Shown piece by piece: positions 2,108-63,908 of a DNA stretch of 63,908 nt. Source of the DNA: a virus (Duplodnaviria > Caudoviricetes); IMG/VR virus record IMGVR_UViG_3300048033_000958, positions 1 through 63,908 of that record; one strand, 5' to 3'. Below the pieces are notes generated by a model, which saw only the letters and a list, made by a program, of their open reading frames with translations, was not told where the DNA came from and ran no database searches. Position 1 is the first letter of the stretch, and each line of letters begins with the position of its first letter. A program made the translations under genes and the position numbers.

Positions 2108-2550
2108 CTATAAACTTTAAATGGATTTGTTTTATTCAAGTATCCATCGTAATCACTACGGAACTCTTCTAATCTTGGTTCAATGTCATCAGACTTAATA
2201 ATCCAAAATTGAGCACCTGCTGCTTTTGCTTTTTCAATTTCTTGGTTGTCATCTGATGATGAAATAATACCAATCACACACCCATTACCATAATCAAAGT
2301 TAATCTTTCTAATAAGTTCGATACCATCAAATGAAGAGCCAATGATATTCAAATCAACGAATACACATTCAGGTCTTTCGTGGTTGGGGTCATCTGGAAA
2401 CCATGCCTTAAATAATTTATCTGCCTCATCAGAAGAGTTAAGTGCTTCTAACGATAGAGTTATATCTAAGATACTACATGCATCTTCAAATACCAAGTGG
2501 AATAAATCCTCATCATCCACCAATAAAATAGAGTTAATCATATTGTTCAT
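2104..2550 (-). CDS. Single-domain response regulator (CheY-like receiver)
   Basis: LLVDDED acidic pocket, FVDLN phosphoacceptor Asp, IISSS, WIIKS conserved Lys; no output domain. Confidence 0.92.
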   Translation of the reverse strand: MNNMINSILLVDDEDLFHLVFEDACSILDITLSLEALNSSDEADKLFKAWFPDDPNHERPECVFVDLNIIGSSFDGIELIRKINFDYGNGCVIGIISSSDDNQEIEKAKAAGAQFWIIKSDDIEPRLEEFRSDYDGYLNKTNPFKVYR

Positions 2551-6956: not shown

Positions 6957-6957
6957 A

Positions 6958-8480: not shown

Positions 8481-8494
8481 AACTCGTGTATTGA

Positions 8495-9064
8495 TTATAT
8501 ATTATATTTTTCTTTTGCTTTATTAAAAAAATCAAGTGTATCTGGCCATAACACTACGATACCAAGGTCAATTAATTTTTGAAAATCTTTAACAGTATCG
8601 GATTGTGGGTGAGATTCTCCTTCGAGTATCATACCTTCTTGATTTTCATAATGCTCTTTTACATAAAATGGGTGATTTTGATAGAATGAAAACCCAGTAA
8701 CAAATACTTTACTAAACCCAGTTAACCATAAATTTATGGCAACATATACACCCATATTTGGTTTTGTACCACTAAACTCAAATCCATCTGGTCTGATGTA
8801 TTGTGATGTCATCGTTCTGCCTTTTAAAAATACATTTTGAACACCAAATCTATACTGAACTTCTCGAATTCTATCTCGATTATTTTCTTGCCATTGCTTA
8901 TTTACAAACAAAAAATCAGTTCTATGACCATAGTCCTTGAAATTTTGGATTTCGAATGAATTATTCATTCTTGCTACATAACCCATATTGTCTATACTCT
9001 TACCCAACCCCATACCTTCTAAGTGTGGTGATGGTCCTACTAAGATTGCGGTTTGTGCAAACAT
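8495..9064 (-). CDS. Divergent GT29-like glycosyltransferase
   Basis: VGPSPHL..G..ID....RMN..DYGHRTD (L-like); NMG..TGFSFY (S-like); C-terminal His. Confidence 0.7.
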   Translation of the reverse strand: MFAQTAILVGPSPHLEGMGLGKSIDNMGYVARMNNSFEIQNFKDYGHRTDFLFVNKQWQENNRDRIREVQYRFGVQNVFLKGRTMTSQYIRPDGFEFSGTKPNMGVYVAINLWLTGFSKVFVTGFSFYQNHPFYVKEHYENQEGMILEGESHPQSDTVKDFQKLIDLGIVVLWPDTLDFFNKAKEKYNI

Positions 9065-9626
9065 AACTTTTCCTTCTTAAACTTGTTGTAATAATAAGTA
9101 GTATCCTCCAATAGAGTAATATTGTAATTTTCAATAAAATATTGTAAGTTAGATACATTTTTGAATTGGTCGTGACCTATCTTTGTCTTGAATTGTACAT
9201 TACAATCAGGGTCGGATGGGTTTTCTGATATATACTTATCTGAATATTTTGCATTTGTTTGATAAAATGAGTAACCCGTTAGTGAGATATCACTATAACC
9301 CATATCTAATAAGTTAAATACTGCTATAATTCCTAAATTGCTATTAGTATTGTATGGCACTTTGTATTTTTTACCAATCACCGATTTAAGTTGTCGGTGT
9401 TTTTTGTAAATATTTTTAGCAGGAATACCATATTCGGATTTAAGATACTTATCAGTTACATTACGAGAAGACCACCCATTTAAAAATAACATATCAACTC
9501 TACTACCATAGTCATTAGGTAATTCTTTCATTAACTTATAACCTTGGTTCATTCGAACTATGATGTCGTAACTATCTATCAAATTACCCAACCCCATACC
9601 TTCTAAGTGTGGTGATGGTCCTACTA
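9000..9626. repeat. 43-bp perfect direct repeat at 9000-9042 and 9584-9626
   Basis: ttacccaaccccataccttctaagtgtggtgatggtcctacta occurs twice, encoding VGPSPHLEGMGLG in both GT29-like paralogs. Confidence 0.95.
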
Positions 9627-44433: not shown

Positions 44434-44968
44434 GTTTTACGAACTCTGAATAGTTTGTGATGTAGTTTGAGATACCTTTGATGTCTTTTTCGGCAGTTCT
44501 AACCTGTCTTTGGTTTACTATAACTGCATCATCTCTTAGTTTCCAAGCAAGTTCTAAGGTTTTATAGTGTTCTGGTTGAAGTTCATTAAAGGTGTCTTCA
44601 CTTACTTCTACTATTATACCATTGAAGTGTCTTTTTGCAAAGAAACGATAATAAAATCCATTATCATAATCCTCTTGAGTAGGTACATTTTTTTGATACC
44701 TTGCAAATACAAATGAGTCTATGGTATCTTCTAGTAGGGAGTCGTATTTAAAATTAGTTTTGTTTGAAGATTGTGATAGGTCTATGTAAGGTACTAATTT
44801 TTTAGATATATTTTTTACATAAGATGATTTAGTAAATACCTCACCTGTAATATAGGTATGATAATCACCAACGTATTCAGTACCATCTTCCAACATCCAC
44901 TCTTTACCTTGTGTATAGAGTCCTTTTTGGATTTGACCTTCGGGGTAATATATCTTCTTTCTACTCAT
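44429..44968 (-). CDS. Hypothetical protein of the baseplate region
   Basis: LYT.GKEW..YVGDYH, PTQEDY..G...RFF; start probably MSRKK at 44968. Confidence 0.65.
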   Translation of the reverse strand: MSRKKIYYPEGQIQKGLYTQGKEWMLEDGTEYVGDYHTYITGEVFTKSSYVKNISKKLVPYIDLSQSSNKTNFKYDSLLEDTIDSFVFARYQKNVPTQEDYDNGFYYRFFAKRHFNGIIVEVSEDTFNELQPEHYKTLELAWKLRDDAVIVNQRQVRTAEKDIKGISNYITNYSEFVKL

Positions 44969-46692
44969 TATGCATTCACCATCATATATCCAACAATAGT
45001 AGTATCCCAAGTTTCACCATCACATTTGTGCTCAATTTCACCGACTGCAAAATATACACTACCGTGACTCACTGCGTTTGGTAGTGGATTAACTGTAAAC
45101 TTTTGCATAAATTTAGGACCATTCCACCCATCTAAAGTAACACTTAAATCAATACCATATCTCATTGATATTCCCTTGAGGTCTTTGTTAACATATTGTT
45201 TTAGTATTCCTTTACAATCTTGAGCAAGTTCTGCGGAATAATTCTGACCTATCTCTTTTATTTTTTCATCTAAAAGTGTACCAGGGTCTTTGGGTTCATC
45301 TTGTGTTGTTTCTTCCTTTGGTTTACATCCTGCAAAAACACTCTCTACGATAGATTTAGGATATGGACCACTACTACCTGCAAATGCAATTGCTGCCATA
45401 TCTGGGTCCATATTAGATGACATACTAAGTGATTTTATTGGTGAACTAGGACTTAGTAAATTAATTGTAGTAGCACCACTTTTTTTAATATCATTCTTTC
45501 TATTTAGTATGTAGAACGTACCCTTATCTTCTGATATAAAGCAATCAACTGCCGTTCCCGTACAAGTACTTAGTTCGGCAAATATTTTATTTAATAATTG
45601 GTTGGTTGTATATTCTTTATTATCTTCTTTTTGTGATTGCATTACGGAGTCTTCCATATCAATCAATTTAGGAATAGAAACCCATATATCACCAACAGAC
45701 CCATCAGCCCCCGTCAATTTTGAAAAGTCATTCTTTTCACCATATTTTCCCCTTTTGCCTGGTAGGCAAAATGCCATTGGGTCTGCTGATTTTAGTTTGG
45801 CTAGTGTCTTATATTTTGCATCAAGTTTATATCGATTACCAACTAGCTCATTTAAAAATCCCACAACTCTACTTATTTTTACAACAGGTACTAGGATGTT
45901 ATCGGCAGACCCAAGTGATACTATCATATCGAACGTAGATGCATCTTTTTGTCCCTTAATCAACCCATAATCTCCCTTTGAAACTGCAGTTCCATCACGA
46001 GAAGGTACATTTGTATTTTTTAGATTACCTTTTTCATCTCTTGCTAAACCTAATGCCTTATCACATTCATTTTGAAGTTTTTTGATGATAGAATAACCTT
46101 TATTTTTTTTATCACCAGCATCTACCGACTCAACACCATTTTTAGATGGTTTTACCTTCAATGCACCTGCGATAGTTGCATCGGAGTTTTCACCCATACA
46201 CTTACAAGTACACGAATACGAACCATCATCTGAATTGTATGAAAAACTAAAATCATAAACGGATGCTTTTGATATTGTTAATTTATCACCTGGTGAATAC
46301 CCAATAGTGACATCAACCAACATACCTGGAATCATAAATGCATTTGCCATTTTGTTTAGTTGGTCAGTTCCATAACAAATGTATTGAAACTCAATTTCCC
46401 AAAGTGCAGTATCTTCGATACCACCACTACCTTGATTTTTAGTAGTGATTGATGTTAGGTATGGATTAGGTACATACCGACCACCACTTCTGGGTTGTAA
46501 TGCACCACCTTGTGCAAATTTTGTACTAGAATCACCCCCAAATGTTAAAGATGCACCACCACCAGAACAAGTAAATTGTTTATTACCAACTACTTTAACA
46601 CTACCATATGCTCTTCGTTTATAAGCACGTTGTTTACTATCAAATGGATTTGGTGGTAAATTTAATCCACCTTGATTGAATATATTTGACAT
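44968..46692 (-). CDS. Putative baseplate hub protein
   Basis: Follows LysM gene; C-terminal LSVTLDG..IEHK..WDTTI hub-like pattern. Confidence 0.55.
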   Translation of the reverse strand: MSNIFNQGGLNLPPNPFDSKQRAYKRRAYGSVKVVGNKQFTCSGGGASLTFGGDSSTKFAQGGALQPRSGGRYVPNPYLTSITTKNQGSGGIEDTALWEIEFQYICYGTDQLNKMANAFMIPGMLVDVTIGYSPGDKLTISKASVYDFSFSYNSDDGSYSCTCKCMGENSDATIAGALKVKPSKNGVESVDAGDKKNKGYSIIKKLQNECDKALGLARDEKGNLKNTNVPSRDGTAVSKGDYGLIKGQKDASTFDMIVSLGSADNILVPVVKISRVVGFLNELVGNRYKLDAKYKTLAKLKSADPMAFCLPGKRGKYGEKNDFSKLTGADGSVGDIWVSIPKLIDMEDSVMQSQKEDNKEYTTNQLLNKIFAELSTCTGTAVDCFISEDKGTFYILNRKNDIKKSGATTINLLSPSSPIKSLSMSSNMDPDMAAIAFAGSSGPYPKSIVESVFAGCKPKEETTQDEPKDPGTLLDEKIKEIGQNYSAELAQDCKGILKQYVNKDLKGISMRYGIDLSVTLDGWNGPKFMQKFTVNPLPNAVSHGSVYFAVGEIEHKCDGETWDTTIVGYMMVNA

Positions 46693-46695: not shown

Positions 46696-46998
46696 TTACT
46701 CAATATCATTTAGTTCTTTGTACTTATCTATGATTTCAAATTGATTTTGTGGAATCCTTACTTGAGCACCTACCTCTATAGTTAAGTCGCCTTTACCAAT
46801 ATTATTTGCGCGTGCAATAATCCACCAAAGTGATGAATCTTGATAGTATTTAAAAGCAAGATTATCTAACCTATCACCAACCTGACCAATAATGTATATG
46901 TCATCAACGTGGGGTTCTATTATAGGGAATAGTGTAGTCTTTTTAAATCTACGACCATTCATACCTCTCAATACTTCTATACCATCATATCTATTCAT
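46696..46998 (-). CDS. LysM-containing baseplate wedge protein (gp53-like)
   Basis: GDRLDNLAFKYYQDSSLWWIIARAN..G.QVRIP. Confidence 0.85.
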   Translation of the reverse strand: MNRYDGIEVLRGMNGRRFKKTTLFPIIEPHVDDIYIIGQVGDRLDNLAFKYYQDSSLWWIIARANNIGKGDLTIEVGAQVRIPQNQFEIIDKYKELNDIE

Positions 46999-49694
46999 TA
47001 TTGAAATCCTTTAGTTTCATAGAAAGAATAGTGATTCTTGCTACTCTTATAAATAGTATCTGGAAGAATAGTTAATCCAACATTTACATCAACTCCCATT
47101 GGAAGTTCTGATAGGTTACCATCGTGATTTATATCCCAAGGTAAGTCATCTGGTATCGTGTATGTTAGTGATGTAATTAATGATGGAACACCACTTGTAC
47201 CATTACCCCATAATTGACCTAATCTAAAGTAACAAATATGACCTGAGTATGCTGACCCATATGTTGGCATTGTTAACTTTGATAATTCGGAAAGTTTCTT
47301 CCATATGTTTTTCATCTCATCTCTTGAGGTTGCATATGCTTTGAAACTAAATGAAAGGGTTCTTTCAAACTCAGAATACATATATGCTTTATCAGCACGA
47401 CCTGGATATTTGATACCATTCCAACTTGGTGAAAATGTTTCAGTTACACCATTAATTGTAGAACGGAATTGGATGATTTTAGCACTATCTTGAGTTCCTG
47501 CAGTTGTATCATATGCAAAAAATAGGTGAACTAAGTCATTTTGAAGTTTTGCATTAAATACCGAATCGTACACATTGTCTATTCTACGAGATGAATTACC
47601 TGTTGCTATTCGTTCACTATTTGTTTTAAATGTAGCAGGTGTTCCATATGTCTTTTCTAAATTATACTCTTCGTAGTTAGTGCCCGCTTCCACATCAGGC
47701 AATCTATTGTACTTTAATGTTTTTAGATTTCTAAAATCACCTTTGTAATTTGATAGTTTTTCTCCATTTGCTAATTTTTGGATAGTACCATATGATATTG
47801 CCTCGTAGTCAATAATACTAGTACCAAATCCACTTTTTTTGCTATCATCAGATTTATATAAACCACGAGGTTCAAACTCTTTATCTATATTAAATGTTGA
47901 TTTTGGATTTACTTGGTTACCTATGGTAGTACCAATCAAGTTATTATCGTTTAGAGTTCTAACTAATTGGGTTTGGTAATATTTAGTTTCTAATTTAGGT
48001 CCAAATGGGTCAATAGGTCCAATAAAAAACTTATCATAAGTAGTTAAATATGCTCTAACTTTAGCAAAGTCCTTACCTACGTTTTTGAAAGTATTCGTGT
48101 ATCGAGTTGTTCTAGTTACACCAATTCCATAAACTGAGTCGAACCCACCTCTTAGGTCTGGTGCTCCTATAGGGAATATATCACTATTCAACCCTTTTCT
48201 AGATAGTGAGAATACACTATATATATTCCTCAAAGGACTTATGTTGATAGAAGCACCTACATTATATTTCCAACCCTGTTTACCTAATGGGATTAAGTCA
48301 GGTCTATCAAATTTTAAACCTAAATGTTGCCCTGCCAAACTTGCTAAAAGATTTACTGGTGTCCAAGTCTTACCATATTTCTGACTACGTTGTAATCCTA
48401 CTTGTCTTACACCCCATAACAATCCCTTTGCTGATAAAAAGAATGACCCAATGCGGGCAACATCTACCAATGCTCGTGTAGTAGATGCTACAATACCACC
48501 TCTAATTAATCCATCATCAACACCTAACCCAAAGTCCCAAAATTGAGGTTCACCCTTAGTGATTTTTTTTCTTTGTATACCTCGTAATATGTAAGGTGCC
48601 TTTATTATGTTTAGTGAGTTGGGTGAATCATCTTTTAGATTAAATTTATGATACATCTCATCTAAGAATGATGGTGAATTACGTTTCTCCATCATACTAC
48701 CAATGCTTGTGTATGAATCTATATATCTACTACCATCGGGAGAATATCGCTGTGTATCACCAATAGGGTCACCGACCTTATATTTACCATACCCTGCTTG
48801 AAAAGATATTCCACTATTTGCACTACCAAATTGACTTAATAGTGAATTTGTATTATCAAATGAAGTTTGTGATGGGTCTACCCCAACAAATGTAGAATCA
48901 TTCTTTGGTTGTTGGTATGGTGAAAATCCTTTAGCATTATCATCAGTAATAAAATCAACAAATTTAGGGTCTTTTGCTTGCCTTTCTAAGTTAGGATTAA
49001 ATTTAATTTCATCTGGAGTGGTTACACCTAAAAAATTAGATGAGTTGTCAAATTCAGTTGGTGTTGTTTCACCTAAGAACTTAGACTCACCATCAAACTC
49101 AGTAGGAGTAGTCTCACCTAAAAAATTAGATGAGTTGTTAAATTCAGTTGGTGTTGTTTCACCTAAGAACTTTTGGGTAAACGATAACTCACTTGGAGTA
49201 GTCTCGCCTAAGAATTGTTGTACAAATCTGAACTCAGATGGTGTGGTTTCCCCTTTGAACTTTTCCTCATTGGAGTAGTCTTGAGGAGTCGTCTGACCCT
49301 TAAATCTATCTCCTTGAGTAATATTTGTTGTTTCGGTTTCACCTTTAAATTTATCCCCTTGTTGTACTTCTTGTGCTTCAGTCTGACCTAAGAATCTTTC
49401 TTCTAAAGACATCTTAGTAGGTGTGGTCTCACCCAAATAGTTCGATGAGTTATCAAACTTACTTGGATTAGTCTCACCCAAATAGTTCGATGAGTTATCA
49501 AACTTACTTGGAGTCACACCTTGTTTTGGTGTAGTCGTGTTTGACTTAGGGGCAGATGGGGTCTTATCCACGAATTGGGATAGAGGGGTCTGATTAGTAG
49601 ACTTAGGTACTTCCACTCGTTTCTTATCACTAAGTGGTTTCTCTATGGGTCTTCTAAATTTAGATAAGTCTGATTTTAAATCTTTTAATGCCAT
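46998..49694 (-). CDS. Baseplate/tail-tube initiator-like protein with N-terminal repeats
   Basis: C-terminal QFRS..ETFSPSWN...Y.GR..Y.Y..FERTLSFSF tube-like domain; lies between tape measure and LysM genes. Confidence 0.6.
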   Translation of the reverse strand: MALKDLKSDLSKFRRPIEKPLSDKKRVEVPKSTNQTPLSQFVDKTPSAPKSNTTTPKQGVTPSKFDNSSNYLGETNPSKFDNSSNYLGETTPTKMSLEERFLGQTEAQEVQQGDKFKGETETTNITQGDRFKGQTTPQDYSNEEKFKGETTPSEFRFVQQFLGETTPSELSFTQKFLGETTPTEFNNSSNFLGETTPTEFDGESKFLGETTPTEFDNSSNFLGVTTPDEIKFNPNLERQAKDPKFVDFITDDNAKGFSPYQQPKNDSTFVGVDPSQTSFDNTNSLLSQFGSANSGISFQAGYGKYKVGDPIGDTQRYSPDGSRYIDSYTSIGSMMEKRNSPSFLDEMYHKFNLKDDSPNSLNIIKAPYILRGIQRKKITKGEPQFWDFGLGVDDGLIRGGIVASTTRALVDVARIGSFFLSAKGLLWGVRQVGLQRSQKYGKTWTPVNLLASLAGQHLGLKFDRPDLIPLGKQGWKYNVGASINISPLRNIYSVFSLSRKGLNSDIFPIGAPDLRGGFDSVYGIGVTRTTRYTNTFKNVGKDFAKVRAYLTTYDKFFIGPIDPFGPKLETKYYQTQLVRTLNDNNLIGTTIGNQVNPKSTFNIDKEFEPRGLYKSDDSKKSGFGTSIIDYEAISYGTIQKLANGEKLSNYKGDFRNLKTLKYNRLPDVEAGTNYEEYNLEKTYGTPATFKTNSERIATGNSSRRIDNVYDSVFNAKLQNDLVHLFFAYDTTAGTQDSAKIIQFRSTINGVTETFSPSWNGIKYPGRADKAYMYSEFERTLSFSFKAYATSRDEMKNIWKKLSELSKLTMPTYGSAYSGHICYFRLGQLWGNGTSGVPSLITSLTYTIPDDLPWDINHDGNLSELPMGVDVNVGLTILPDTIYKSSKNHYSFYETKGFQ
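49020..49514 (-). repeat. 11 tandem 45-bp (15-aa) coding repeats
   Basis: Consensus TPxxFxxxxxFLGET; 49426-49467 identical to 49471-49512. Confidence 0.9.
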
Positions 49695-49705: not shown

Positions 49706-51961
49706 TTACTTTAATTGGTCTCTATAAGACTGCATTCTTACATTCTTCTTGTTCATCTGACTTACTACTTTATCATCAATAACAATCTGAACTGGTTGTG
49801 ATTGTATGTCTCTTCTAAGACCTTTAATTTCATCTAATAATGGGTCACTCTGCTGACCACCTGCTCCACCACCCGATTCTGAGTCTCCTCCCAATCCAAG
49901 TGCGTTTGCAATCATTGGTAGGAATACTCCCAAAATCATTAGAGTTGGTAGTAGTGGTGTAATCAATGCCAATCCCAATGCTAATGGAATCATAGATGCC
50001 CCTAATATAGCAAAGACACCTGCTAAAGCAATCAATCCTGGAGCAATCATCACTAATGCTACTAATTGTGTTGTTAATTCACCAAACATACCAAACCCTT
50101 TGGCAATTTCTTGGATAGCAATACCAAGAACTAATAAGGCAGCTGCGATTACCAACATTGCTGCTGCTCCTGCGAGGATTGCAACTGCACCCACCCCACT
50201 CATCATTATTGCTCCGACCAATGCTAAAGCACCTACGAGTGCTAACATAGATACAACTGCCATACCAACCGCATCCCAAGAAACTTTCATAAATTCTTGG
50301 ACTGCTTTAGCAAATACAAAAACCGATGCTGCTACCAATACAAGTGCAGCCCCACCAGCAAGTAGTTTCTTGCCATCTATTTTTTCGATACCCTTAGTGA
50401 ATCCAGTCATACCCTTACTACCACCTTTTGGTATTTCGGCCGTAGCTCCCTTTTTTGCTAATAGTTCTTTTCCTTTAGAAAAACTACCACCTGCAAATTG
50501 TGATTTCTTACCACCACCAAAGACACCTTTAATTTTACCACCAAGACCTTTTAAAGTCTTACCAATACCACTAAATGATAAATTCATATTTTTAGATAAT
50601 ACGGATGCTTGTGCTAATGCAGGTATTATTGCCGTAAATAATGTAGAACCCATACTTCCCATTGTTGCCAAAGTAGCCTGTGTTGCTTCTTGAGATTCTA
50701 TTTTTTTTGTAAGGGCTTCTTCATCGAGTCCTGGGTATTCAGCACGTAGTTTAGACATCTCTTCTTCTTTGACCAACATTTCGGTCATTTGGTCTACTGA
50801 CATACCATACGCATCTGCGTATGCTTTTTGTGCCATTGGACCGAGTTTACCAAATTCTTTAGAAGAACCAACTTGTTCTGACAATGCTTTACTTAATTGT
50901 GATGCATCACCAGTCATTTGATATTGTAATGCAGCTTCTCTAACTTTTTGAGCATTAATGTCTTTACCCAATAACATTCTTGCCTTCATCTCTGCTTTTA
51001 AAGAACCTTCAATGTTTAACATATTATCTGATACTGAATTTAACAATTCCATTGATTGTCCGTGTTTTTTCAACTCAGCAGTTTTACGGGCTAATACTCT
51101 GATTTCTTCCTCTGATTTACCAACAAGTAAATTTTGATTATTTGCCATTTCTTGAAGAACTGCTGAAGCAGCTACTCCTTCTTGCATTGCAATTGCTTTG
51201 ATTGAATCGGTCATATCTCCAGCATCACCTGCTGCTTGACCAAATATAGCACTTAGTTGTGCGGGTCCTTGAACCCCTAATGCGGATAGTTCTGCGATAT
51301 TCTTCTGACTATCCATAGTTAGATTTGATATTGTCCCAAAGTATTGTGCGGATTCTTTAGCAGCATCTGCTAATGCTTGAGAACCATATAACATACCTTC
51401 TATACTAAATGATGCGGCAAGTGTTTGTGCCCCGATTTCTGCGGCTTCTCCTGCGGACACACCTAAATTGATATATAAGTCTTTTGCTAAACCCACTGTA
51501 TTTCCTACAAACTCAGATATTTTCTTAACACCTGCTGTGATTGCCATCACACCAAGGGCGGCTGCCCCACCTACCTTAAATGCTTCAACATACTTGCTAT
51601 TCATCCCTAAGGCATCTTTGAGATTGCCTTTTAGGTCCTTCATCAGGTCACCACGTTGTTTTTCTTGTTTTACAAGTTTTTCTGCAGTTTCAAGCTGTTC
51701 CAACATCTGTTTGGCCAAATCTTCATTTTTATCATATATCTCAGAAATGATTTTTTCCTTGGCTTCAGCAATCTTTGTTAACTTAGATTCTAAGTCTTTT
51801 GCTTCTAAAATGGCAGCAGTATTTTCTTTTAGAATCTTACCCTCGCGAGTTCTACCATCTAAGTTTTTTTGCAATATGTCAGACAGATTCTTCTGAATCT
51901 GTTCTTCAGCTCTCATTGCATCAACACGTGCTTGGGTATCTTTTCTTTCGTTTGTAGCCAT
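49706..51961 (-). CDS. Tape measure protein
   Basis: Ala/Gly-rich helical protein with hydrophobic C-terminal stretch, downstream of the tail chaperone. Confidence 0.85.
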   Translation of the reverse strand: MATNERKDTQARVDAMRAEEQIQKNLSDILQKNLDGRTREGKILKENTAAILEAKDLESKLTKIAEAKEKIISEIYDKNEDLAKQMLEQLETAEKLVKQEKQRGDLMKDLKGNLKDALGMNSKYVEAFKVGGAAALGVMAITAGVKKISEFVGNTVGLAKDLYINLGVSAGEAAEIGAQTLAASFSIEGMLYGSQALADAAKESAQYFGTISNLTMDSQKNIAELSALGVQGPAQLSAIFGQAAGDAGDMTDSIKAIAMQEGVAASAVLQEMANNQNLLVGKSEEEIRVLARKTAELKKHGQSMELLNSVSDNMLNIEGSLKAEMKARMLLGKDINAQKVREAALQYQMTGDASQLSKALSEQVGSSKEFGKLGPMAQKAYADAYGMSVDQMTEMLVKEEEMSKLRAEYPGLDEEALTKKIESQEATQATLATMGSMGSTLFTAIIPALAQASVLSKNMNLSFSGIGKTLKGLGGKIKGVFGGGKKSQFAGGSFSKGKELLAKKGATAEIPKGGSKGMTGFTKGIEKIDGKKLLAGGAALVLVAASVFVFAKAVQEFMKVSWDAVGMAVVSMLALVGALALVGAIMMSGVGAVAILAGAAAMLVIAAALLVLGIAIQEIAKGFGMFGELTTQLVALVMIAPGLIALAGVFAILGASMIPLALGLALITPLLPTLMILGVFLPMIANALGLGGDSESGGGAGGQQSDPLLDEIKGLRRDIQSQPVQIVIDDKVVSQMNKKNVRMQSYRDQLK

Positions 51962-54242: not shown

Positions 54243-56576
54243 TTATGCTTCAGGGAAAGCCGCACCAGTTGGAAGAATGTTGAAGTCAAGTACGATGAAC
54301 TCAGCAGTCTTCGTTGGTTGTAAGTAAATCTCCCCTACCATAATGTTTCTATCAATTACATCTGGAGTGTTGTTAGTATCATCCATCACAACTCTAAATG
54401 CGTACAAACCATTTCTTTGTTGGATTGATTCCAAGTAAGGATTCACAATTGATAGGAATCTATTTCTTGTTGCAGCAGTATTGTTTTCGAATACCAAGTA
54501 TCTTGTTGAAGATGCGATGTATTTCTTAACTGCGATTAACAATCTTCTTACATTGATTCTATCCAATGCAGATGGTTTTGCTTGTAGTGTCTTTTGACCG
54601 AATACCGTAGCACCTTGTCCTGGGAAAGTTGCGATTGGGTTGATTCGACCTTCGTATAATGTGTCTCTCTCATCGTGAGTCAAACGAGTCTTAACTTCGA
54701 TTACATTTGGAAGACCACCACGATTCAAACCTGCTGGTGCGTACCATTCGGCACTTACAGCATCGTTGAATGCAATTACACCAGGAAGTACAACACTTGG
54801 CGGTACCCATACTGGTTTGTTTTTATCAGTATCCAAAATCTTAACCCAAGGGTGGTAAGTAGCCACATAGTTTGAGTCAAATGAAGTTAGTGAATTTTTC
54901 ACAGTTGCAATAGAGTCAGAGTAACCACCTGCATCCATTACATAGAAACAATCTAATCTATCTTCACACATATCTTTTGCGTAAGTAGTTACTGCAGAGT
55001 GTAGTCTATTGATTACACCTGGAAGTGCAATCATATTGATATCGAACTCATCAGGGTTTGAGATTGCATCAATTGCTTTTCTATATGCAATTGTACCTGC
55101 TGCTGTAGCAGATGAAAGGTTGAACCCTTGTGCGTTACCTGCAACGATTGAAGAACCCACGTTTACTACTCTATTTGGTTCATATCCATCGAAACCACCT
55201 TGGAATGGTACTAAGAATTTCTTAGCACTCAAGTCAGATGTCAATGAGATAGCAGCACCATTTGATTCACAAGTTGCCAAATCAAAGTCAGAACCAACAG
55301 TTTCAGTATTTGAATCTGGAAGTGGTTGTAGGAAGTTCAAGTTATCAGTCGTAGTAAAATCGAATGAGTAACCCAAGAATGCTCTCTTGTTGTACTCACT
55401 TGAGATAGACTGAGATACATTGTAAGTTGGAGTAGGTAAGTTGTAAGATGAATGTAGAGGTGAAGTTACAGCACCGAATCCGAATGGAACGAGTGTTGAA
55501 TCAATAGCACCACTATCAACATCATCAGCTACTTCTACTCTAATGTGAGCAGATGCGTTAGGGTAATCACCATTTGAGTTTAATTTACCATTTGCATCAA
55601 CTGTGATATACTTGTCACCAATTACTCTCTTAATGTAGTTTGGTGAGTTAGGGTCAAGATTTACACCTTGGAACTCTTCTACGATGTTTGGTCTAAGGTC
55701 AGAATCTTGAACACTTTGTCCAAAAATTGAATTAGGAATCTTTCCAGTATCTACTCTTCTTACGATTACACTAAATGTACCATACTCAGAACCTGGCACC
55801 TCTGAAGCTGGTCTAATGTCACGAATACCTACTTTGAATTCGTAGTTCGTAGAGTTACCGTGAGATAGTGTATGGAATTTAATCAAGTTAATAGCTTCAC
55901 CACCAACTTTTTGTGATTTAATCCAAGGAGTTACTGCCTCTTGATATGTCTTCGTGTAATCAACATCAACTTGCTGAACTGAAACCTTAACATCTTCACC
56001 AGTTGCGAATGATGCAGATTGGAATGTTCCAAAGTTCAATTGAGTGTAAGCATCTTTAGAAGACTTAGGAGCATATCCATATGTCTTAGTAATGTAGTTT
56101 TCATTTGATGGGTTCAATGATGCGGAAGTATTTGCTTCAGCAACTGAACTACCAGTCAATGTTAAAATGAAAGAAGATGCACTTGCAACTGCATCTACCG
56201 ATGAGTCATCGAAGTCACCACCATTTGAAGTAGTAGTTGGGTGAAGTAAAGCACCTACTAACTCACCTTCAGATGATGATACTACCAATGCTAATGGTTT
56301 AGCAGTGTATCCATCTTGACCTAATACTCTTACGATAGTAGCAGTACCTGCTTCCTCTAAATAAGATTGGGCAGTATACGGAAGATATGAATCTTCAGTA
56401 AGACCACCGAACTTTTGTTGGAATTCTTGAAAAGACTCTACTTGTGTTGGAACAAAAGCAGGTCCTTTGATTGATTGCCCGATAAGAGCAGCACCTATCT
56501 CACCAATACCTTGTGGTAAAAATGAAAGGTCTTTTTCTCGTGTAAATACGCCAGGACTTACAATTCTTTCAGCCAT
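54243..56576 (-). CDS. Contractile tail sheath protein (gp18-like)
   Basis: SPGVFTREKD, WYAPAGLNRG, INPI, GQKTLQ, DRINVRRL, FENN, PTKTAEFI. Confidence 0.96.
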   Translation of the reverse strand: MAERIVSPGVFTREKDLSFLPQGIGEIGAALIGQSIKGPAFVPTQVESFQEFQQKFGGLTEDSYLPYTAQSYLEEAGTATIVRVLGQDGYTAKPLALVVSSSEGELVGALLHPTTTSNGGDFDDSSVDAVASASSFILTLTGSSVAEANTSASLNPSNENYITKTYGYAPKSSKDAYTQLNFGTFQSASFATGEDVKVSVQQVDVDYTKTYQEAVTPWIKSQKVGGEAINLIKFHTLSHGNSTNYEFKVGIRDIRPASEVPGSEYGTFSVIVRRVDTGKIPNSIFGQSVQDSDLRPNIVEEFQGVNLDPNSPNYIKRVIGDKYITVDANGKLNSNGDYPNASAHIRVEVADDVDSGAIDSTLVPFGFGAVTSPLHSSYNLPTPTYNVSQSISSEYNKRAFLGYSFDFTTTDNLNFLQPLPDSNTETVGSDFDLATCESNGAAISLTSDLSAKKFLVPFQGGFDGYEPNRVVNVGSSIVAGNAQGFNLSSATAAGTIAYRKAIDAISNPDEFDINMIALPGVINRLHSAVTTYAKDMCEDRLDCFYVMDAGGYSDSIATVKNSLTSFDSNYVATYHPWVKILDTDKNKPVWVPPSVVLPGVIAFNDAVSAEWYAPAGLNRGGLPNVIEVKTRLTHDERDTLYEGRINPIATFPGQGATVFGQKTLQAKPSALDRINVRRLLIAVKKYIASSTRYLVFENNTAATRNRFLSIVNPYLESIQQRNGLYAFRVVMDDTNNTPDVIDRNIMVGEIYLQPTKTAEFIVLDFNILPTGAAFPEA

Positions 56577-56646: not shown

Positions 56647-56928
56647 TTATTTGGTAGGTGTGAATTGATTTGTATTAATATCGTAAGTACCCTCACCATA
56701 TTTCTCTTTTAATTCAGCACTTAATTCCACTTCTTGTTGTCTTAGAGTAGTGTAACCATCAATCAAAGATTGTTTCTCGCTCTTTAATGCTTGGAACTCT
56801 TGTTCTAATCCGTGGATTTGTAGTTCGATTTCACCAATTCTAGTATTGGTGGTAATTACTTTTTGTTGAAACTCTTGAATCTTGTTCACTTCTTCTTGAG
56901 TGAATTGGACTACTGTTTTTTCTTCCAT
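56647..56928 (-). CDS. Coiled-coil hypothetical protein
   Basis: Helical body ending LKEKYGEGTYD; TATTTATA motif upstream. Confidence 0.7.
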   Translation of the reverse strand: MEEKTVVQFTQEEVNKIQEFQQKVITTNTRIGEIELQIHGLEQEFQALKSEKQSLIDGYTTLRQQEVELSAELKEKYGEGTYDINTNQFTPTK

Positions 56929-56970
56929 AACTTTGTATTATTATTGTTCTACTATATAAATATGTAAAAA

Positions 56971-58344: not shown

Positions 58345-59508
58345 TTATCCTATAAAAATTGGTCTTGGTACTCTATTGAGTGTTTCTTCCAAATATTCAG
58401 ATTCTTCTTTTCTTGCTTCCATCAATGCTCTACGAGAAGTTGATTCCAACATCTCAGTCAATTGAGTAAGTAATGATTCTTTCTCAGCAGATGCTTCGTT
58501 ACGAAGGTCTGACCCATCAAGTGTAATATCTGCTCCTGGGATTGGAATAGCAGAGAACTTTGCTCTAACTGCACCCAACATCTCTTTTGCTAATGCAAGT
58601 GTGTATCTTGCAATCCATTGTTTACCTGCTGAGTTGATATTCTGATAAGTCAATCTACTAAATGGTGCATTTGACAAATCACTTACCACATTTGAGGCAG
58701 CTATTGGTGAGTTAGTCTCACTATCTAATGTATAATCAAAGTAAACCTTTGCACCAGTATCACCACTTGTTGGGATTGGGTATAATCTAATTCTTTGCCC
58801 ATCAATATGGAATCCATACGATGATTTACGAATCTTATCATTAAACTCAATTGCTTGTAATCTAAGAAGGTCATCAAACATTGGTTGCATCATAAATGAT
58901 ACACCTGGTGAGTAGTTACCCCAACCAAAGGTGTTCATCATTTGTTGAGAACCCATACCAGTACCCACAAATGGGTCGAAGTATCTGATGATTGCTGGTG
59001 GTTGAGTATGATATACTCTTCTCATTGTAATACCATTTAGTGTAGAACCACTTTCTAAGGTTACTACACTATCATCACCAAAGTCGTAGATTTGTTGACC
59101 ACCTACCATCTCGAAAGAACCAGTGTAAACAGTAACTTTACCACCACTCAATGCTTCAGTACCATAGTCTTTTGCGATATTGACTAAGTTCTGCATATTT
59201 GCATTCATATTGGTATCTGATAAATCCAAATCCAATGATGAACCTTGTAGTGACAATAAGTTTTCTTTTGCTCTATATTGATTTACTTGAGATGAGTATT
59301 CATTTACTGCTTCTTCTAAACAAGCAAAGAAGTTGATGTCTTGTAATTCAACATCAACAATTGGATACCCCAATCTCTTAGCACACCACTCTGCAACTTT
59401 CGGTGCATCTGATTGAAACTGAGTGTCAGAATCAAAGAACCCGAAAGGAGTTGATGAACCACTTGCAAACGAACCCGAACCTGGCCATATTGGAATTTCT
59501 ACTGCCAT
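58345..59508 (-). CDS. Neck protein (gp13-like)
   Basis: RLGYPIVDVEL, WI..Y.LALAKEMLG..R.KF..IPIPG..LDG. Confidence 0.85.
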   Translation of the reverse strand: MAVEIPIWPGSGSFASGSSTPFGFFDSDTQFQSDAPKVAEWCAKRLGYPIVDVELQDINFFACLEEAVNEYSSQVNQYRAKENLLSLQGSSLDLDLSDTNMNANMQNLVNIAKDYGTEALSGGKVTVYTGSFEMVGGQQIYDFGDDSVVTLESGSTLNGITMRRVYHTQPPAIIRYFDPFVGTGMGSQQMMNTFGWGNYSPGVSFMMQPMFDDLLRLQAIEFNDKIRKSSYGFHIDGQRIRLYPIPTSGDTGAKVYFDYTLDSETNSPIAASNVVSDLSNAPFSRLTYQNINSAGKQWIARYTLALAKEMLGAVRAKFSAIPIPGADITLDGSDLRNEASAEKESLLTQLTEMLESTSRRALMEARKEESEYLEETLNRVPRPIFIG

Positions 59509-59535
59509 TTATACTCCTAAATACTATTAGTCCTA

Positions 59536-59543
59536 TATAAATA
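59536..59543 (-). promoter_or_regulatory. Putative late-promoter motif TATTTATA (one of about 10 copies)
   Basis: Exact copies also at 18269, 39540, 47048, 52219, 53355, 56955, 63174; variants at 54220, 56614, 41648; upstream of minus-strand genes. Confidence 0.6.
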
Positions 59544-59552: not shown

Positions 59553-61256
59553 TTACCTTTTCGTATTTTTCATAAAGGATACTATTATATATCTTTTACC
59601 ATCACTTACGGCACGAGCACCGTGTTTATGTGTAATATTCCCAGGATGAATAGTTACATATCCAATACCATTTTTTACCAATTCTTTTTGTCTTCTAAAC
59701 CAAGTCCCACCACCTTCATACTCATCTAAGTCTGAAAGTTGGACTAAACAAGTAACATCAGATGCATCGTGATGGATTGATAAGTGTCCTTGGGTATCGG
59801 GTGTATATCTTGCTAAGAAGTTTTCAGAATCTAAAACATCCCAACCTTCACCCTCTAATGCCCACATATAAATTGAGAGTGGCATTACATATTCACGAAG
59901 AACTTCCATATAAATCTCATGCATTCCAATGGTTTGTAATACCATATCGGTAGTTGGATAGTGTTCGTGTCTATTATAGGTCCAAGAGTTAGAGTGTTCT
60001 GCTTCTTCACGAATCATTTTACAAAACTCTGGTGTAAATAATGGAAATGTAAATGTATTCATAAATGGCTCATCGGTAATCAAGTCCCATTCTTTAGTTC
60101 TTGCCGAATAAGTGATGAATCTACGTTTCCACTCAGTTGGGTTTTCATAATAAGTGTATAACTCAGGATGTAATTTATCTTCTTGATGTAAAACTCGCTT
60201 TGGTTTATCATCTTCTTCTATCTTACTCAACCAAATATCACCAACCATCTCCCAAGATTGTTTATTAGCAAACCCACTTGCTACTCGTAAAAACGATTCC
60301 ATAGAGTTTGGATTGTTTTGGTCGGTTTGTAGTATATCAAGAATACTTAATTTCATCTTATCAAAGTCTTGGTCAGATGATACAAGTTTACCCTTACCTT
60401 GAAGTAGTGATTTTAAATTGGCAGTATCGGATGATATTATTTTAACACCACCTTTCATCATTTCAAGAGCAGTAATACAATATGTCTCATCATAATAAGA
60501 TGGATATACCCAATATTCCGATTTACTTATTTCGTTATACAATCTACTTGGTGGTAATGCTCCTACAAATTCAACACCATCCAAATCTTTTTTATAGCCA
60601 TCATACCATTCTTCGGCATATGGTGGAGTTGCAACTAATAATGTAGCATTTGGTTTTATTTGTTTTATTTCACCCCACATACTCAGTAGATTTTCTAATC
60701 CTCTATCTGCGGCTGAAGAGTATATGAATCTATCTTTAATTTTTATTTGTGGTGACGGCCAATCACTTGAATCAATTGCATTTGGAATAACATCTATCTT
60801 GGATTCCATTTCTGGATAATTGTTTAATAGTTGATTCTTTGAATAGTCCGAAACTGCAATAACTCTATTCATACGAGAGTTGTGTAAGTTAGGTCTACCA
60901 TCTTGGTCCAAACTACTACCATTCCACCACGGATAAAACTCATTATTATGTATCCAAAAGTAAGACTTATCAAATGTAATTCCTTTTGAATCTAATTCTT
61001 GTAGGTAATGGATATAATTTGTTGCAATAACAACATCATAGTGGTCATTTATACCCAAGTCTTCATATGTAAAATACTTTACACCATTATAAGTGCCTGT
61101 GATAACTTCACCACTAACCATAACCTCGTGTCCTAATTCAGAAAATCGTTCTGCTAATTTCATAACTGAATATTCTGAACCACCTGACCCAGTTTCTTTC
61201 CAAGATTGGGGACTAAATGCGGTCTTTTGATAACCTATACAAAATAATACTTTCAT
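59553..61256 (-). CDS. GT4 glycosyltransferase fused to a PLOD-like (procollagen lysyl hydroxylase-type) 2OG-Fe(II) dioxygenase
   Basis: N-terminal GGSE, IPNAID, YSS..DRGL, ETYCITALE; C-terminal FPLFTPEFC, YPTTD, FLARYTPD..HHDAS, YEGGG, HPGNITHKHG..G.RYIIVSF. Confidence 0.85.
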   Translation of the reverse strand: MKVLFCIGYQKTAFSPQSWKETGSGGSEYSVMKLAERFSELGHEVMVSGEVITGTYNGVKYFTYEDLGINDHYDVVIATNYIHYLQELDSKGITFDKSYFWIHNNEFYPWWNGSSLDQDGRPNLHNSRMNRVIAVSDYSKNQLLNNYPEMESKIDVIPNAIDSSDWPSPQIKIKDRFIYSSAADRGLENLLSMWGEIKQIKPNATLLVATPPYAEEWYDGYKKDLDGVEFVGALPPSRLYNEISKSEYWVYPSYYDETYCITALEMMKGGVKIISSDTANLKSLLQGKGKLVSSDQDFDKMKLSILDILQTDQNNPNSMESFLRVASGFANKQSWEMVGDIWLSKIEEDDKPKRVLHQEDKLHPELYTYYENPTEWKRRFITYSARTKEWDLITDEPFMNTFTFPLFTPEFCKMIREEAEHSNSWTYNRHEHYPTTDMVLQTIGMHEIYMEVLREYVMPLSIYMWALEGEGWDVLDSENFLARYTPDTQGHLSIHHDASDVTCLVQLSDLDEYEGGGTWFRRQKELVKNGIGYVTIHPGNITHKHGARAVSDGKRYIIVSFMKNTKR

Positions 61257-61258
61257 AA

Positions 61259-62551
61259 TTACTGCTCTGTGTAAATGTAATTTAATACTTGTTCTCTTTC
61301 AAAATATCTAGTTCTATCCATCCACCAACTCGAATTACACGATTGTGTTTCCTCGTTCCAATCCCAATCAAATTTGCCTAATTCTTGGATTCGATTATGA
61401 ATATCTTTGTCGTAATAATTTCGAATCAACCTTGCTCTCCGATTGATGTCAATCAAATTTAAATCGACTGTACTTGAAAAATTATTCCATTGCATATACA
61501 ATACTTTGTCGATTTTTAGCATCTTTGTTTCTAAGAATGTTTTTACTATCAACTCAAAGTCATCTGCTACTGAAATTGTTCTATTATGACCTCTCACTTT
61601 ATGATACACATCTCGGTGCCATATCCTAGCATGGTTAGGCATTCCCATATTATATCTAATAGTTTTAGGATTGATATTTGCTGAATATCCACCTACATAT
61701 TTCTTATCATCAATCTCTACCCACTCGTGGTGTGCATATCCGAACACATACCCATTATGGTCTCTACCATATGCTTGTGGGTCAATTGGTCCATAGTATT
61801 TGTGACTGCCATCCTCATATATCTCAGCAACACCAGTAAAAACAAACCCAGCATCGGGATATTTCTTAATACCACGCACACAAACCTCAAAACAATCCGA
61901 AGCAAGAGTATCATCGTGGTCTAATTCTACCAACCAATCACCATTTGCTAAGACAGCAGCTCTATGCTTGACTTCACCAACATTCCCACCCGAATTTGGA
62001 GTAATTCTATGTATTTTTACTCGTGGGTCTGATTCTGCGATGGTTTTTAACTTATTCCAAGTATCAAAGTCATCTTCTGGTGAATCATCAACTACCACCC
62101 ACTCCCAATTTCGATATGTTTGGTTTTTTAGTCCATCGTATGCTCTAAATATACGATTACCAGTCTTATATGTTCCAGTAAATACTGAAAATAATGGGTT
62201 TTCTTTTGAACCATATAATTTAGTAGATTTACAACTCCAAATTGTTGATAATCTTGCTACTTCATTTGCTAAATCAACATCGGATAATGGATTATCAAAA
62301 TGAGTCCACTTTGAACTAATAATTTCTGATGTTTCTTGTGATATTACAAACGAGTTAGCATCACCAAATGTTAAAATGACGTCTGGTTCGTGTTTTACCA
62401 TCAGATTGTAAAGGTCTTGGTCACTTTCGTAAGACCATAATTGTATATTTTCAACCAAACCTTCATTTTCGCATAGATTTGATGATAATTCAAACTCACC
62501 AAACCTATCCCAACCAAAAACTAATGCAGATGGTAGTTTAGTTTTTATCAT
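61259..62551 (-). CDS. GT2-family glycosyltransferase with extra N-terminal domain
   Basis: QTYRNWEWVVVDDS, ELDHDD, ADDFEL. Confidence 0.87.
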   Translation of the reverse strand: MIKTKLPSALVFGWDRFGEFELSSNLCENEGLVENIQLWSYESDQDLYNLMVKHEPDVILTFGDANSFVISQETSEIISSKWTHFDNPLSDVDLANEVARLSTIWSCKSTKLYGSKENPLFSVFTGTYKTGNRIFRAYDGLKNQTYRNWEWVVVDDSPEDDFDTWNKLKTIAESDPRVKIHRITPNSGGNVGEVKHRAAVLANGDWLVELDHDDTLASDCFEVCVRGIKKYPDAGFVFTGVAEIYEDGSHKYYGPIDPQAYGRDHNGYVFGYAHHEWVEIDDKKYVGGYSANINPKTIRYNMGMPNHARIWHRDVYHKVRGHNRTISVADDFELIVKTFLETKMLKIDKVLYMQWNNFSSTVDLNLIDINRRARLIRNYYDKDIHNRIQELGKFDWDWNEETQSCNSSWWMDRTRYFEREQVLNYIYTEQ

Positions 62552-62554
62552 AAT

Positions 62555-63154
62555 CTACTTGTATGGTTCGCCACCTACCCAAAGTACGAACGATTTGCGA
62601 GTTCCACTTTTTACTGGGGTTACTCTATGTAACATAAACGATGGAAATATAACTGCTGCTCCTTGAACTCTAGGTGCTACTTTGTGACTTCCCATATTGA
62701 ACTCTAAATCTCCACCTTCATATTCATCAGGTGCTGATAATTGAACTGTTACTGATACTTTCCTTTGGTTTTGAATACCAATTCCACAATCCATATGCCA
62801 ATCGTAATGACCACCACCACCATAGTACTCAGTATACTGAATTGCTTCGTTCATTGTTGATAAATCGAACTTCCACATAACATCATTTGCTTCCATAATC
62901 ATATTATGTAGTTTTTCGTATACCCAATCCCATTCTTGATTTTGGTAACACCACTTTACTTTGGATTTTCTATAATCACTAATTTTTGAAGAATCATCTT
63001 GACCAGTGGCAGCTTCCTCAAACTTTAAGGCTTGTGTCATCTTCTCGATTTGCTCTAACTCTGATTTACTAAATCCAGTTTCGAACCAATAATAGTTGGT
63101 AAAGTCTACATCAGACCGATGTTGGTTTCTATCAAAACTAAAATTTCTATTCAT
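62555..63154 (-). CDS. 2OG-Fe(II) oxygenase (prolyl-hydroxylase-like)
   Basis: YDWHMD, RKVS, YEGGDL, FPSF..HRVTPV..G.RKS. Confidence 0.9.
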   Translation of the reverse strand: MNRNFSFDRNQHRSDVDFTNYYWFETGFSKSELEQIEKMTQALKFEEAATGQDDSSKISDYRKSKVKWCYQNQEWDWVYEKLHNMIMEANDVMWKFDLSTMNEAIQYTEYYGGGGHYDWHMDCGIGIQNQRKVSVTVQLSAPDEYEGGDLEFNMGSHKVAPRVQGAAVIFPSFMLHRVTPVKSGTRKSFVLWVGGEPYK

Positions 63155-63192
63155 ATATAACTTTTTTGTTTTATATAAATATGTAAAATAAA

Positions 63193-63906
63193 TTAGTAAT
63201 CACCACTTCCACTTAAATACATTTCTAAAACGTAAACTGGGTCACCTGATGACCACCCTAGAGGTTTAAATTGTAATTGGTCTTGATATCCTAAGTTACA
63301 CCATATCTTTATAGTTTCAAAGTATCCACCACTCATTTGGTTACCTTTAGCACCTTTTTGACCAACAAATCCACTCATACCTTGAGGACCACCATCACCT
63401 ACAAATTCTAAATCAGAATCTTTATCCGCACCTTGGGCACCTTTAGGTCCTTGAAGACCAGTATCCCCCTGCGGACCTGCGTCAATGGTAGGACCTTGAG
63501 GACCTTGCGGGCCAGTATCTCCTTGTGGACCTAATACACCTTTGACACCACCATCACCACTTGGACCATTTGGACCTATTGGACCTTGTGGGCCATCAAC
63601 CCCAGTATCACCCACATCACCAGTTGGACCAGTCTCACCTTGAACACCTTGAGGTCCTTGTAAACCTTTAAATTCTAAGTCAGATGATTTGTCTATACCT
63701 TGCGGACCTTGTAAACCTTGAGAACCTTGGAAACCTTGGTCACCACCTGGGCCTGTTACGTTTGCTGGACCTACTGAACCAATTGTACCTTTTTGACCTG
63801 CTTCACCTTTTTGACCTTGAAGACCTTGGTCACCTACATCACCCGTTGGACCTATCTGACCACTTGGACCTTGTGGGCCATCAACCCCAGTAACACCTAC
63901 ATTTCC
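63193..63906 (-). CDS. Collagen-like (Gly-X-Y) fibre protein, 5'-truncated by the window edge
   Basis: Frame is open from 63906 to the stop at 63193 with Gly-X-Y triplets, short interruptions and a ~45-aa non-collagen C-terminal domain. Confidence 0.9.
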
Positions 63907-63908
63907 TT

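Follow-up and report, generated by a model that had tools for sequence, protein, structure and literature searches.

A probable collagen-lysine modification module with a PLOD-type lysyl hydroxylase domain fused to a GT4 glycosyltransferase in a tailed phage

To investigate a collagen-like gene and its enzyme neighbors in a tailed phage we analyzed the whole IMG/VR record IMGVR_UViG_3300048033_000958 (63,908 bp, termed the window in the following). The window carries four adjacent genes for a collagen-like fibre, a predicted 2-oxoglutarate (2OG)-Fe(II) oxygenase, a glycosyltransferase (GT) of family GT2, and a 567-amino-acid (aa) protein in which a GT4 domain is fused to what is by homology a PLOD-type lysyl hydroxylase (LH) domain. 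We propose that these genes probably form a phage-encoded module for the modification of collagen lysines. The proposal is based on homology, active-site ligands, predicted fold, domain fusion, conserved gene neighborhood, and a bias of lysine towards the Y position of the G-X-Y triplets, with the enzymatic activity being assigned by homology and context. An initial annotation of the same DNA had described these genes as a candidate collagen hydroxylation and glycosylation system; the observation is confirmed, and its interpretation is supported as far as computation reaches, the computational checks suggested there having all turned out in its favor. The features concerned are:

63193..>63906, minus strand: collagen-like fibre gene, 3' part, 237 aa (PF01391, E 1e-20; PHROG tail-fibre families)
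62555..63154, minus strand: 2OG-Fe(II) oxygenase by prediction, 199 aa (PF13640, E 8.6e-16)
61259..62551, minus strand: GT2, 430 aa (PF00535, E 7.4e-15, residues 122-249)
59553..61256, minus strand: GT4-dioxygenase fusion, 567 aa (GT4/GT1 Pfam families at residues 126-311; PF25238 at 360-465)
60201..61256, minus strand: GT4 (GT-B) domain of the 567-aa fusion, residues 1-352 (PF13439, PF13692, PF00534; E257-x7-E265)
59556..60179, minus strand: PLOD-type LH domain of the 567-aa fusion by homology, residues 360-567 (LH3/L230 matches, ligand residues, fold)
58345..59508, minus strand: neck gene, gp13-like head-tail adaptor (phrog_211, E 2.2e-14), start of the neck/tail block

The last 251 aa of the fusion were compared to all PDB chains with phmmer. 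Human LH3 (E 1.7e-30) and mimivirus L230 (E 1.7e-21) were retrieved, and apart from these two only an antibody chain (0.61) reached E<=1. The alignment to LH3 starts at query residue 43 (of 251) and extends onto chain residues 500-713. If a profile of 17 phage LH domains was used instead, the values improved to 1.5e-37 for LH3 and 3.6e-31 for L230, and the next true 2OG oxygenase was PiuC with an E of 0.84. LH3 and L230 were thus the only significant matches among the 177,635 distinct PDB sequences covered. All peptide motifs quoted in the initial annotation occur in the 567-aa protein (FLARY at 480, HHDAS at 495, YEGGG at 513, THKHG at 542, GKRYI at 553), and the resemblance to animal PLOD enzymes stated there holds.

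The putative iron ligands are H495, D497 and H545, and the putative 2OG ligands Y484 and R555. On the LH3 alignment H495 and D497 form the H-x-D pair, H545 is the distal histidine and R555 the 2OG-binding arginine. The counterparts in L230, as given in PMC5802723, are H825, D827, H877, Y814 and R887. The ligand spacing is equal in both proteins, the tyrosine preceding the first histidine by 11 residues in each case (Y484 and H495, Y814 and H825). An AlphaFold2 model of the fusion (mean predicted local distance difference test, pLDDT, 89.6) consists of two domains, between which residues 353-359 form a disordered linker. A Foldseek search of the PDB with this model gave LH3 as top match (E 2e-20), and the LH domain superimposes on the L230 crystal structure with a template modelling score on the target (TMt) of 0.88 and a root-mean-square deviation of 1.7 A over 207 columns at 29% identity. 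In this comparison of a predicted model with a crystal structure the LH fold is matched including the insertions around the double-stranded beta-helix core. Sequence, profile and fold therefore agree in grouping the domain with PLOD and L230 and not with other 2OG oxygenases, and we regard it as a PLOD-type lysyl hydroxylase by homology, ligands and predicted fold.

Such a domain might also have lost its activity and serve as a binding or chaperone module which holds unfolded collagen for the glycosyltransferase. In favor of this one can say that activity is read from homology, and that modelling neither supports nor excludes the homodimer typical of LH enzymes. In PMC5802723 the LH tail-to-tail homodimer is described with L873 of L230 locking into an aromatic pocket. 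The phage protein has I541 (at least 90% conserved) at the equivalent place four residues before the distal histidine. A complex prediction with the LH-domain alignment in two copies, made twice and without controls, gave a score of 0.00 each time and was used neither way. However, all five ligand residues are invariant in the 17 LH domains (alignment A1) and in 39 full-length homologues (alignment A2), down to 29% identity. Such conservation is what one expects of a functional oxygenase, and we give a catalytically dead domain very little credence.

The comparison to characterized enzymes reveals both common and distinct features. Human LH3/PLOD3 (6fxk, 6teu, 8zgc) and the phage fusion share the C-terminal LH domain including its N-terminal extension, which starts with LHP(D/E)L, the H-x-D...H triad with the Tyr and Arg, and the combination of hydroxylase and glycosyltransferase in one chain. 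They differ in the glycosyltransferase part, as the LH3 chain combines a GT-A domain (PF25342) with an accessory domain, whereas the phage fusion has a GT-B domain of family GT4 and no accessory domain. PF25342, the PLOD glycosyltransferase family, gave no match in the window fusion, in which GT4 and LH are the only Pfam domains. Because its N-terminal half is GT4/GT-B, the fusion should be addressed as an LH-domain protein and not as an LH3-type multifunctional enzyme. The site of action would differ as well: LH3 acts in the lumen of the animal endoplasmic reticulum, and the phage fusion would act in the bacterial cytoplasm. Mimivirus L230 (6ax6, 6ax7, 9nev) is likewise a viral bifunctional enzyme with LH and glycosyltransferase activity, but it belongs to a giant virus that infects amoebae, and its N-terminal domain is of the GT-A type, whereas the window enzyme comes from a tailed bacteriophage and carries GT4. 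L230 reportedly modifies the mimivirus's own collagen.

The assignment of the N-terminal half to GT-B/GT4, unlike the GT-A domain of LH3, had already been made in the initial annotation and is corroborated by Pfam and by structural neighbors. PF13439, PF13692 and PF00534 are all above their cut-offs, and Foldseek returned PimA (2gej, TMt 0.71), MshA, BshA and WaaG (TMt 0.64-0.71 for these four) as well as glycogen synthases. The E-x7-E motif is a hallmark of GT4, a family of the retaining type; among the 39 homologues E265 is invariant and E257 at least 90% conserved. The separate GT2 protein belongs to a GT-A fold family and contains a D-x-D motif (D211-H-D213). Its PDB matches are the GT2 domains of chondroitin and heparosan synthases (approximately 1e-7 to 1e-8), and all its NCBIfam matches are below cut-offs.

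A second line of evidence arises from the gene neighborhood in relatives. We fetched 130 loci (55, to which 75 were added), at least 11 of which are re-fetches of contigs already in the set. In the first 55 loci the order is collagen, oxygenase, GT2 (if present), fusion, followed by neck and tail genes, and the gp13-like neck gene is syntenic in related loci, too. An oxygenase gene with at least 400 bp of upstream sequence is found in 93 out of 130 loci, and in 93 out of these 93 a collagen frame ends less than 400 bp upstream. No other gene accompanies the collagen gene as constantly as the 199-aa oxygenase. Among the 93 loci the distinct frames number 35 for the oxygenase and 48 for the fusion, and the variants are distributed as follows:

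GT2 and GT4-LH, the form of the window: 61 loci out of 93
no GT2, GT4-LH: 10 loci out of 93
GT2 and GT4-GT25-LH: 12 loci out of 93
no GT2, GT4-GT25-LH adjoining the sheath gene (group D): 9 loci out of 93
other variant: 1 locus out of 93

In one group D locus (L029:1537-3780) the fusion is cut short within the H-H-D motif of its LH domain, at 747 aa compared to 818 aa in relatives, perhaps owing to a frameshift or to an error in the assembly.

To this we can add an independent set of 80 viral loci that were picked only by a G-P-x repeat pattern. Three of them were scored as LH, and two are true LH fusions: L105 has three collagen frames, then a GT4-GT25-LH fusion, then the oxygenase, and L110 has collagen, oxygenase and a GT25-PLOD_GT-LH fusion. 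In the third locus, L130, there is an oxygenase of the 199-aa type but no LH fusion. The LH domain occurs beside collagen genes with Lys in Y in related as well as in unrelated phages.

These data bear on the possibility that the enzymes act on something else, be it another virion protein, a component of the host envelope or a small molecule, and that the genes are neighbors merely by shared late expression. Gene order could indeed stem from that, and homologues carry the JGI label "glycosyltransferase involved in cell wall biosynthesis". Against this stand the adjacency in all 93 loci, its recurrence in differing gene orders and contexts (L105, L110, group D and the Synechococcus phage S-CAM9 described below), the fact that every relative of the LH domain with a solved structure is a collagen-lysine hydroxylase, and the higher frequency of Lys in Y compared to controls reported next. 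We consider a different target improbable.

The collagen frame of the window is open at its 5' end, where the contig ends, and comprises 56 G-X-Y triplets followed by a non-collagen C-terminus of approximately 50 aa. It contains six lysines in Y and none in X. The six triplets listed in the initial annotation were all recovered, namely GQK at 31, 37 and 182, GVK at 120, GPK at 153, and GAK at 185. The target of LH enzymes is X-Lys-Gly according to PMC9546862.

To put this on a broader basis we counted residues in 109 distinct collagen frames linked to LH (21,365 triplets, from loci L002-L056 and L175-L249), and in 60 viral collagen loci serving as controls (4,562 triplets), for which LH was undetected in the stretch examined. 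Lys occurs 4738 times in Y (22.2% of triplets) and 89 times in X in the linked collagens, compared to 264 (5.8%) and 60 in the controls. This is an approximately four-fold higher occurrence in Y, and the share of Lys that falls in X is 1.8% in the linked collagens compared to 18.5% in the controls. The first 34 frames taken alone gave 0/764 for Lys in X. Arg occurs 38 times in Y and 395 times in X in the linked collagens, and 90 and 46 times, respectively, in the controls. Arg is thus nearly kept out of Y and Lys nearly kept out of X in the linked collagens, and the preference of Arg in the controls is the opposite. As Arg is rare in Y and Lys frequent there, a positive charge in Y is almost always a lysine in the linked fibres. 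Fisher p-values for linked against control collagens are 9e-35 for Lys and 1e-39 for Arg, both inflated by the relatedness of the loci. Pro was found 2518 times in X and 152 times in Y in the linked collagens (controls: 1751 and 295), and 24% of their Y positions are Thr and 8% Ser.

Full-length collagens of relatives have 1000-1950 aa. In the giant collagens at L017:232-6069, L009:1094-6034 and L037:3411-7325 either a PA14/GLEYA domain for carbohydrate binding is embedded or a Peptidase_S74 domain, an intramolecular chaperone, forms the C-terminus; such a content of PA14/GLEYA and Peptidase_S74 domains is as in phage fibres and spikes. The gene before gene 13 in T4 is wac (fibritin), and by analogy of gene position the collagen might possibly be a neck whisker.

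From these observations the following mechanism may be sketched. The collagen-like gene would give rise to a long trimeric fibre, presumably located on the virion. In the infected cell, before the chains fold, the LH domain would use Fe(II), 2-oxoglutarate and O2 to hydroxylate the Y-position lysines of G-X-K triplets, and the resulting hydroxylysines (Hyl) would be O-glycosylated by the fused GT4, the neighboring GT2, or both. By analogy with the Glc-alpha1,2-Gal-beta-O-Hyl glycan, an inverting GT-A enzyme (GT2, or GT25 in the sister proteins) would add the first sugar and GT4 the second, this order of steps being our inference. A second hydroxylation of this fibre would be carried out by the 199-aa oxygenase. 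As 10 loci have neither GT2 nor GT25, GT4 alone may be able to use Hyl, which would parallel the direct glucosylation that L230 is reported to perform.

Several observations weigh against this proposal. The Lys-in-Y bias is a matter of degree, since the controls prefer Y, too (264 compared to 60), and it is not absolute, as Lys does occur in X in 36 out of the 109 linked frames. The control loci cover a part of each contig, so that an LH gene could lie outside of the stretch. The L105 collagens have only 8 Lys in 587 triplets despite an adjacent LH fusion. GT2 is present in 73 and absent in 20 out of 93 loci and is thus dispensable. The window fusion is without the GT25 domain, which is the clearest tie to Hyl galactosylation, and both GT4 and GT2 match at a generic family level only, without information on the acceptor. 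These glycosyltransferases could instead modify the abundant Thr and Ser in Y. Hydroxylation and glycosylation would then be uncoupled, with LH acting on Y-position Lys, and GT4 and GT2 on the Thr or Ser of G-X-T/S triplets or on some other acceptor. BclA of Bacillus anthracis, an O-glycosylated collagen-like protein, is a model for this, and the lack of a PLOD-type glycosyltransferase domain in the window protein fits with it as well. While one must keep these points in mind, the GT4-LH fusion is kept in 39 out of 39 aligned GT4-LH homologues, sister proteins have a COLGALT1-like GT25 inserted between GT4 and LH, and in S-CAM9 the LH domain is fused to two glycosyltransferase domains, the structurally solved relatives of which use Hyl and Gal-Hyl as acceptors. 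Together these arrangements argue for one pathway on one residue. We therefore regard the uncoupled case as unlikely, though as the most serious of the alternatives, and favor the coupled modification of collagen lysine.

The sister proteins with GT25 provide a link to animal collagen glycosylation. In L034 (818 aa) and P0062 (788 aa) a GT25 domain lies between GT4 and LH, and the GT25 of sister fusions matches human COLGALT1/GLT25D1 (9evj, 8zgc_U; E 1.3e-12 for L034). GT25 (PF01755) is absent from all window frames, in which the separate GT2 gene is present. P0062 is the nearest relative of the window fusion and is collinear with it. The GT4 halves are 50% identical (window 1-354, P0062 1-347) and the LH halves 77% (356-567 and 577-788), and the approximately 229 extra residues of P0062 are the GT25 domain, located exactly at the linker of the window protein.

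A further LH-domain phage protein is S820908_031 of the cultured phage S-CAM9 (AOV60406.1, 614 aa, "hypothetical protein"; L230 match E 1.4e-8). It consists of GT25, a PLOD-GT of GT-A type and LH, without GT4, and so has the domain content of animal COLGALT1 plus LH3. Its GT25 matches COLGALT1 (E 3.8e-20), and its PF25342 domain matches the glycosyltransferase domain of LH3 (E 5.7e-33) and mimivirus R699 (E 4.2e-32). The LH domain is approximately 31% identical to that of the window and sits on a long branch of the LH tree. The gene (L057, KU686205.1, 3684-5525, with neighbors at 1-2161 and 2522-3684) is the last in the order annotated tail fibre (S820908_027) with long G-X-K runs, small frame, two PF13640 oxygenases, LH protein. 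Partial matches like that of S-CAM9 also occur in S-PRM1 and S-8S53/55/56. A tblastn search of cultured phages with the full fusion gave partial matches only (16 records), none covering at least 80% of the query.

The family is large. A word-indexed search returned more than 185 homologues, none of which bears a functional name beyond "hypothetical protein" or the JGI label mentioned above. An exhaustive search with the LH profile gave 3114 clusters at E<=1e-3, 1005 at E<=1e-10 and 121 at E<=1e-30. The architectures of the top 150 matches were classified with domain probes cut from the stored proteins, and at least six forms were found: GT4-LH, GT4-GT25-LH, GT25-LH, GT25-PLOD_GT-LH, PLOD_GT-LH (which includes PLOD1 of Lingula anatina, P0260), and LH alone. 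These forms, together with the collinearity of the window fusion with a GT4-GT25-LH sister minus its GT25, support the earlier suggestion that the fusion was assembled independently.

A quick maximum likelihood tree was calculated for 127 LH domains (LG+G4, Shimodaira-Hasegawa-like approximate likelihood ratio support, midpoint root for drawing only); the LH3 and L230 sequences are not part of it. A clade of 39 rows (support 98) contains the animal Lingula, the choanoflagellate Choanoeca (P0237) and long forms of approximately 900 aa. The window falls into a separate clade of 20 rows (support 95) composed mostly of GT4-GT25-LH proteins, and the GT4-LH form requires at least 3-4 changes on the tree. 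The top 150 matches contain no outgroup by which the direction of transfer could be read from the tree. We put forward with considerable reserve, as a doubtful but conceivable scenario, that tailed phages carry the whole "animal" Hyl-glycosylation toolkit (LH, COLGALT-like GT25, PLOD-GT/GT4) in shuffled fusions beside giant Lys-in-Y collagens, that this phage (or bacterial) radiation, and not the animals, saw the first diversification of PLOD and COLGALT, and that the metazoan and giant-virus enzymes are one offshoot of it.

Bacterial and archaeal genomes were scanned with the exact peptides ITHKHGAR and RYIIVSFM. Among 185,579 species genomes one locus was found (L250), a result that says little on distant cellular homologues because the patterns are exact. 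L250 is a 9755-bp contig of a Flavobacteriaceae metagenome-assembled genome (PACV01000028.1), with a 463-aa GT25-LH protein (6176-7564) and a separate 383-aa GT4 approximately 570 bp downstream (8136-9284). It may be phage DNA that was binned into the assembly.

The 199-aa protein is by sequence a 2OG-Fe(II) oxygenase of the prolyl-hydroxylase/PKHD type. Its PDB matches are 3dkq (3.5e-8), PiuC (8e-7) and P4H (1e-3); nothing was found in the literature on the function of PiuC. H120, D122, H176 and R186 are invariant in 14 homologues, and the predicted model (pLDDT 85) is nearest to the Pseudomonas EF-Tu prolyl hydroxylase PPHD and to PHD2 (TM 0.65-0.74, 17-20% identity). We considered a classical collagen P4H, which hydroxylates Pro in Y, and set it aside as unlikely: the 19 prolines in triplets of the window collagen are all in X, and Pro is nearly absent from Y in the linked collagens as well (152 in 21,365 triplets). 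A possible substrate would be the X-position Pro or another residue.

With regard to the phage itself, all long frames of the window are on the minus strand, the GC content is approximately 36%, and the estimated completeness of the record is 32%. The window encodes a sheath, a tube, a baseplate hub, gp15, a gp43-type DNA polymerase and a ribonucleotide reductase; the phage is a distant T4-like myovirus, and its nearest cultured relative by sheath protein is Microcystis phage Mel-JY01 (57.7% identity). A megablast search with the module region against 50,697 phage records gave no match. Gene calls and Pfam verify the order collagen, hydroxylase, GT2, GT4-dioxygenase and its location just upstream of the neck/tail block, both noted in the initial annotation, with gp13/14/15/18-like genes directly downstream: the gp13-like gene is followed by a 175-aa frame, gp15 (PF16724), the sheath gene (54243..56576) and the tube gene. 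The gaps amount to 38 nucleotides (nt) between collagen and oxygenase, 2-3 nt between the three enzyme genes, and 44 nt between the fusion and the gp13-like gene. There is no second collagen, LH or GT25 gene among the window frames.

The initial annotation had also placed a late-type promoter motif at 63174. The motif TATAAATA at 63174-63181 lies on the plus strand, antisense to the genes (the gene direction reads TATTTATA), and its nine copies, all on the plus strand, are not above chance (mean 6.6; 24 out of 100 shuffles reach nine). These data give no support to a T4-type late promoter, and the late-type motif of the initial annotation holds only in part. TATATAAA is at chance level, too, and scans for sigma-70 promoters and terminators remained at shuffle level. 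What stands is an overlapping 10-mer, TATATAAATA on the plus strand (TATTTATATA in gene direction), that recurs upstream of genes. Three exact copies were found compared to 0.44 expected, and none out of 100 shuffles reaches three; with one mismatch allowed the count is at chance level. The copies are:

63172..63181: in the 38-nt gap before the 199-aa oxygenase gene
59534..59543: in the 44-nt gap between the fusion and the gp13-like gene
56953-56962: in the gap before a 93-aa gene at 56647..56928

Since all three copies are found in gaps directly preceding minus-strand genes, the 10-mer can be regarded as a shared promoter-like element, and it fits with co-transcription of the three enzyme genes with structural genes.

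Elsewhere in the window, no PHROG match at E<=1e-5 was obtained for four minus-strand frames of 751, 898, 574 and 564 aa (49706-51961, 46998-49694, 44968-46692 and 39956-41650) in the region that separates the baseplate-hub gene from the replication genes. A 612-aa Nol-like carbamoyltransferase (18299-20137; phrog_1601, E 3e-121) is an auxiliary gene. A 407-aa frame at 41657-42880 matches a part of the DNA polymerase family (phrog_17, E 8e-14, profile positions 926-1236), and is additional to the gp43-type polymerase at 26394-28907.

Hydroxylysine and the Glc-Gal glycan it bears count as hallmarks of animal collagen, and mimivirus counts as the sole viral exception. Our literature search for lysyl hydroxylase, hydroxylysine, procollagen, GT25 and collagen-like proteins in phages and cyanophages found no phage lysyl hydroxylase described, subscription-only papers and supplements being outside of the search. 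PMC8968730 describes phage collagens as short, and prokaryotic and phage collagens as mostly not hydroxylated or glycosylated; PMC12220804 does no more than cite the mimivirus paper. LH-GT collagen-modifying enzymes are thus known from animals and mimivirus, and new here are their occurrence in tailed phages, the GT-B partner, and the large unannotated family.

If the proposal is true, hydroxylysine-glycan chemistry extends to viruses of bacteria, in a large and conserved family of LH-GT fusions for which cultured carriers exist (among them S-CAM9 and S-PRM1, which infect Synechococcus). Compact and probably soluble in bacterial cells, the enzymes could aid the production of hydroxylated and glycosylated recombinant collagen in bacteria, an unmet need according to PMC9546862. 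The finding also has a bearing on the origin of the metazoan collagen-modification enzymes. For the phages themselves it points to a likely new post-translational decoration of adhesion fibres, which could affect host recognition or the stability of the fibre.

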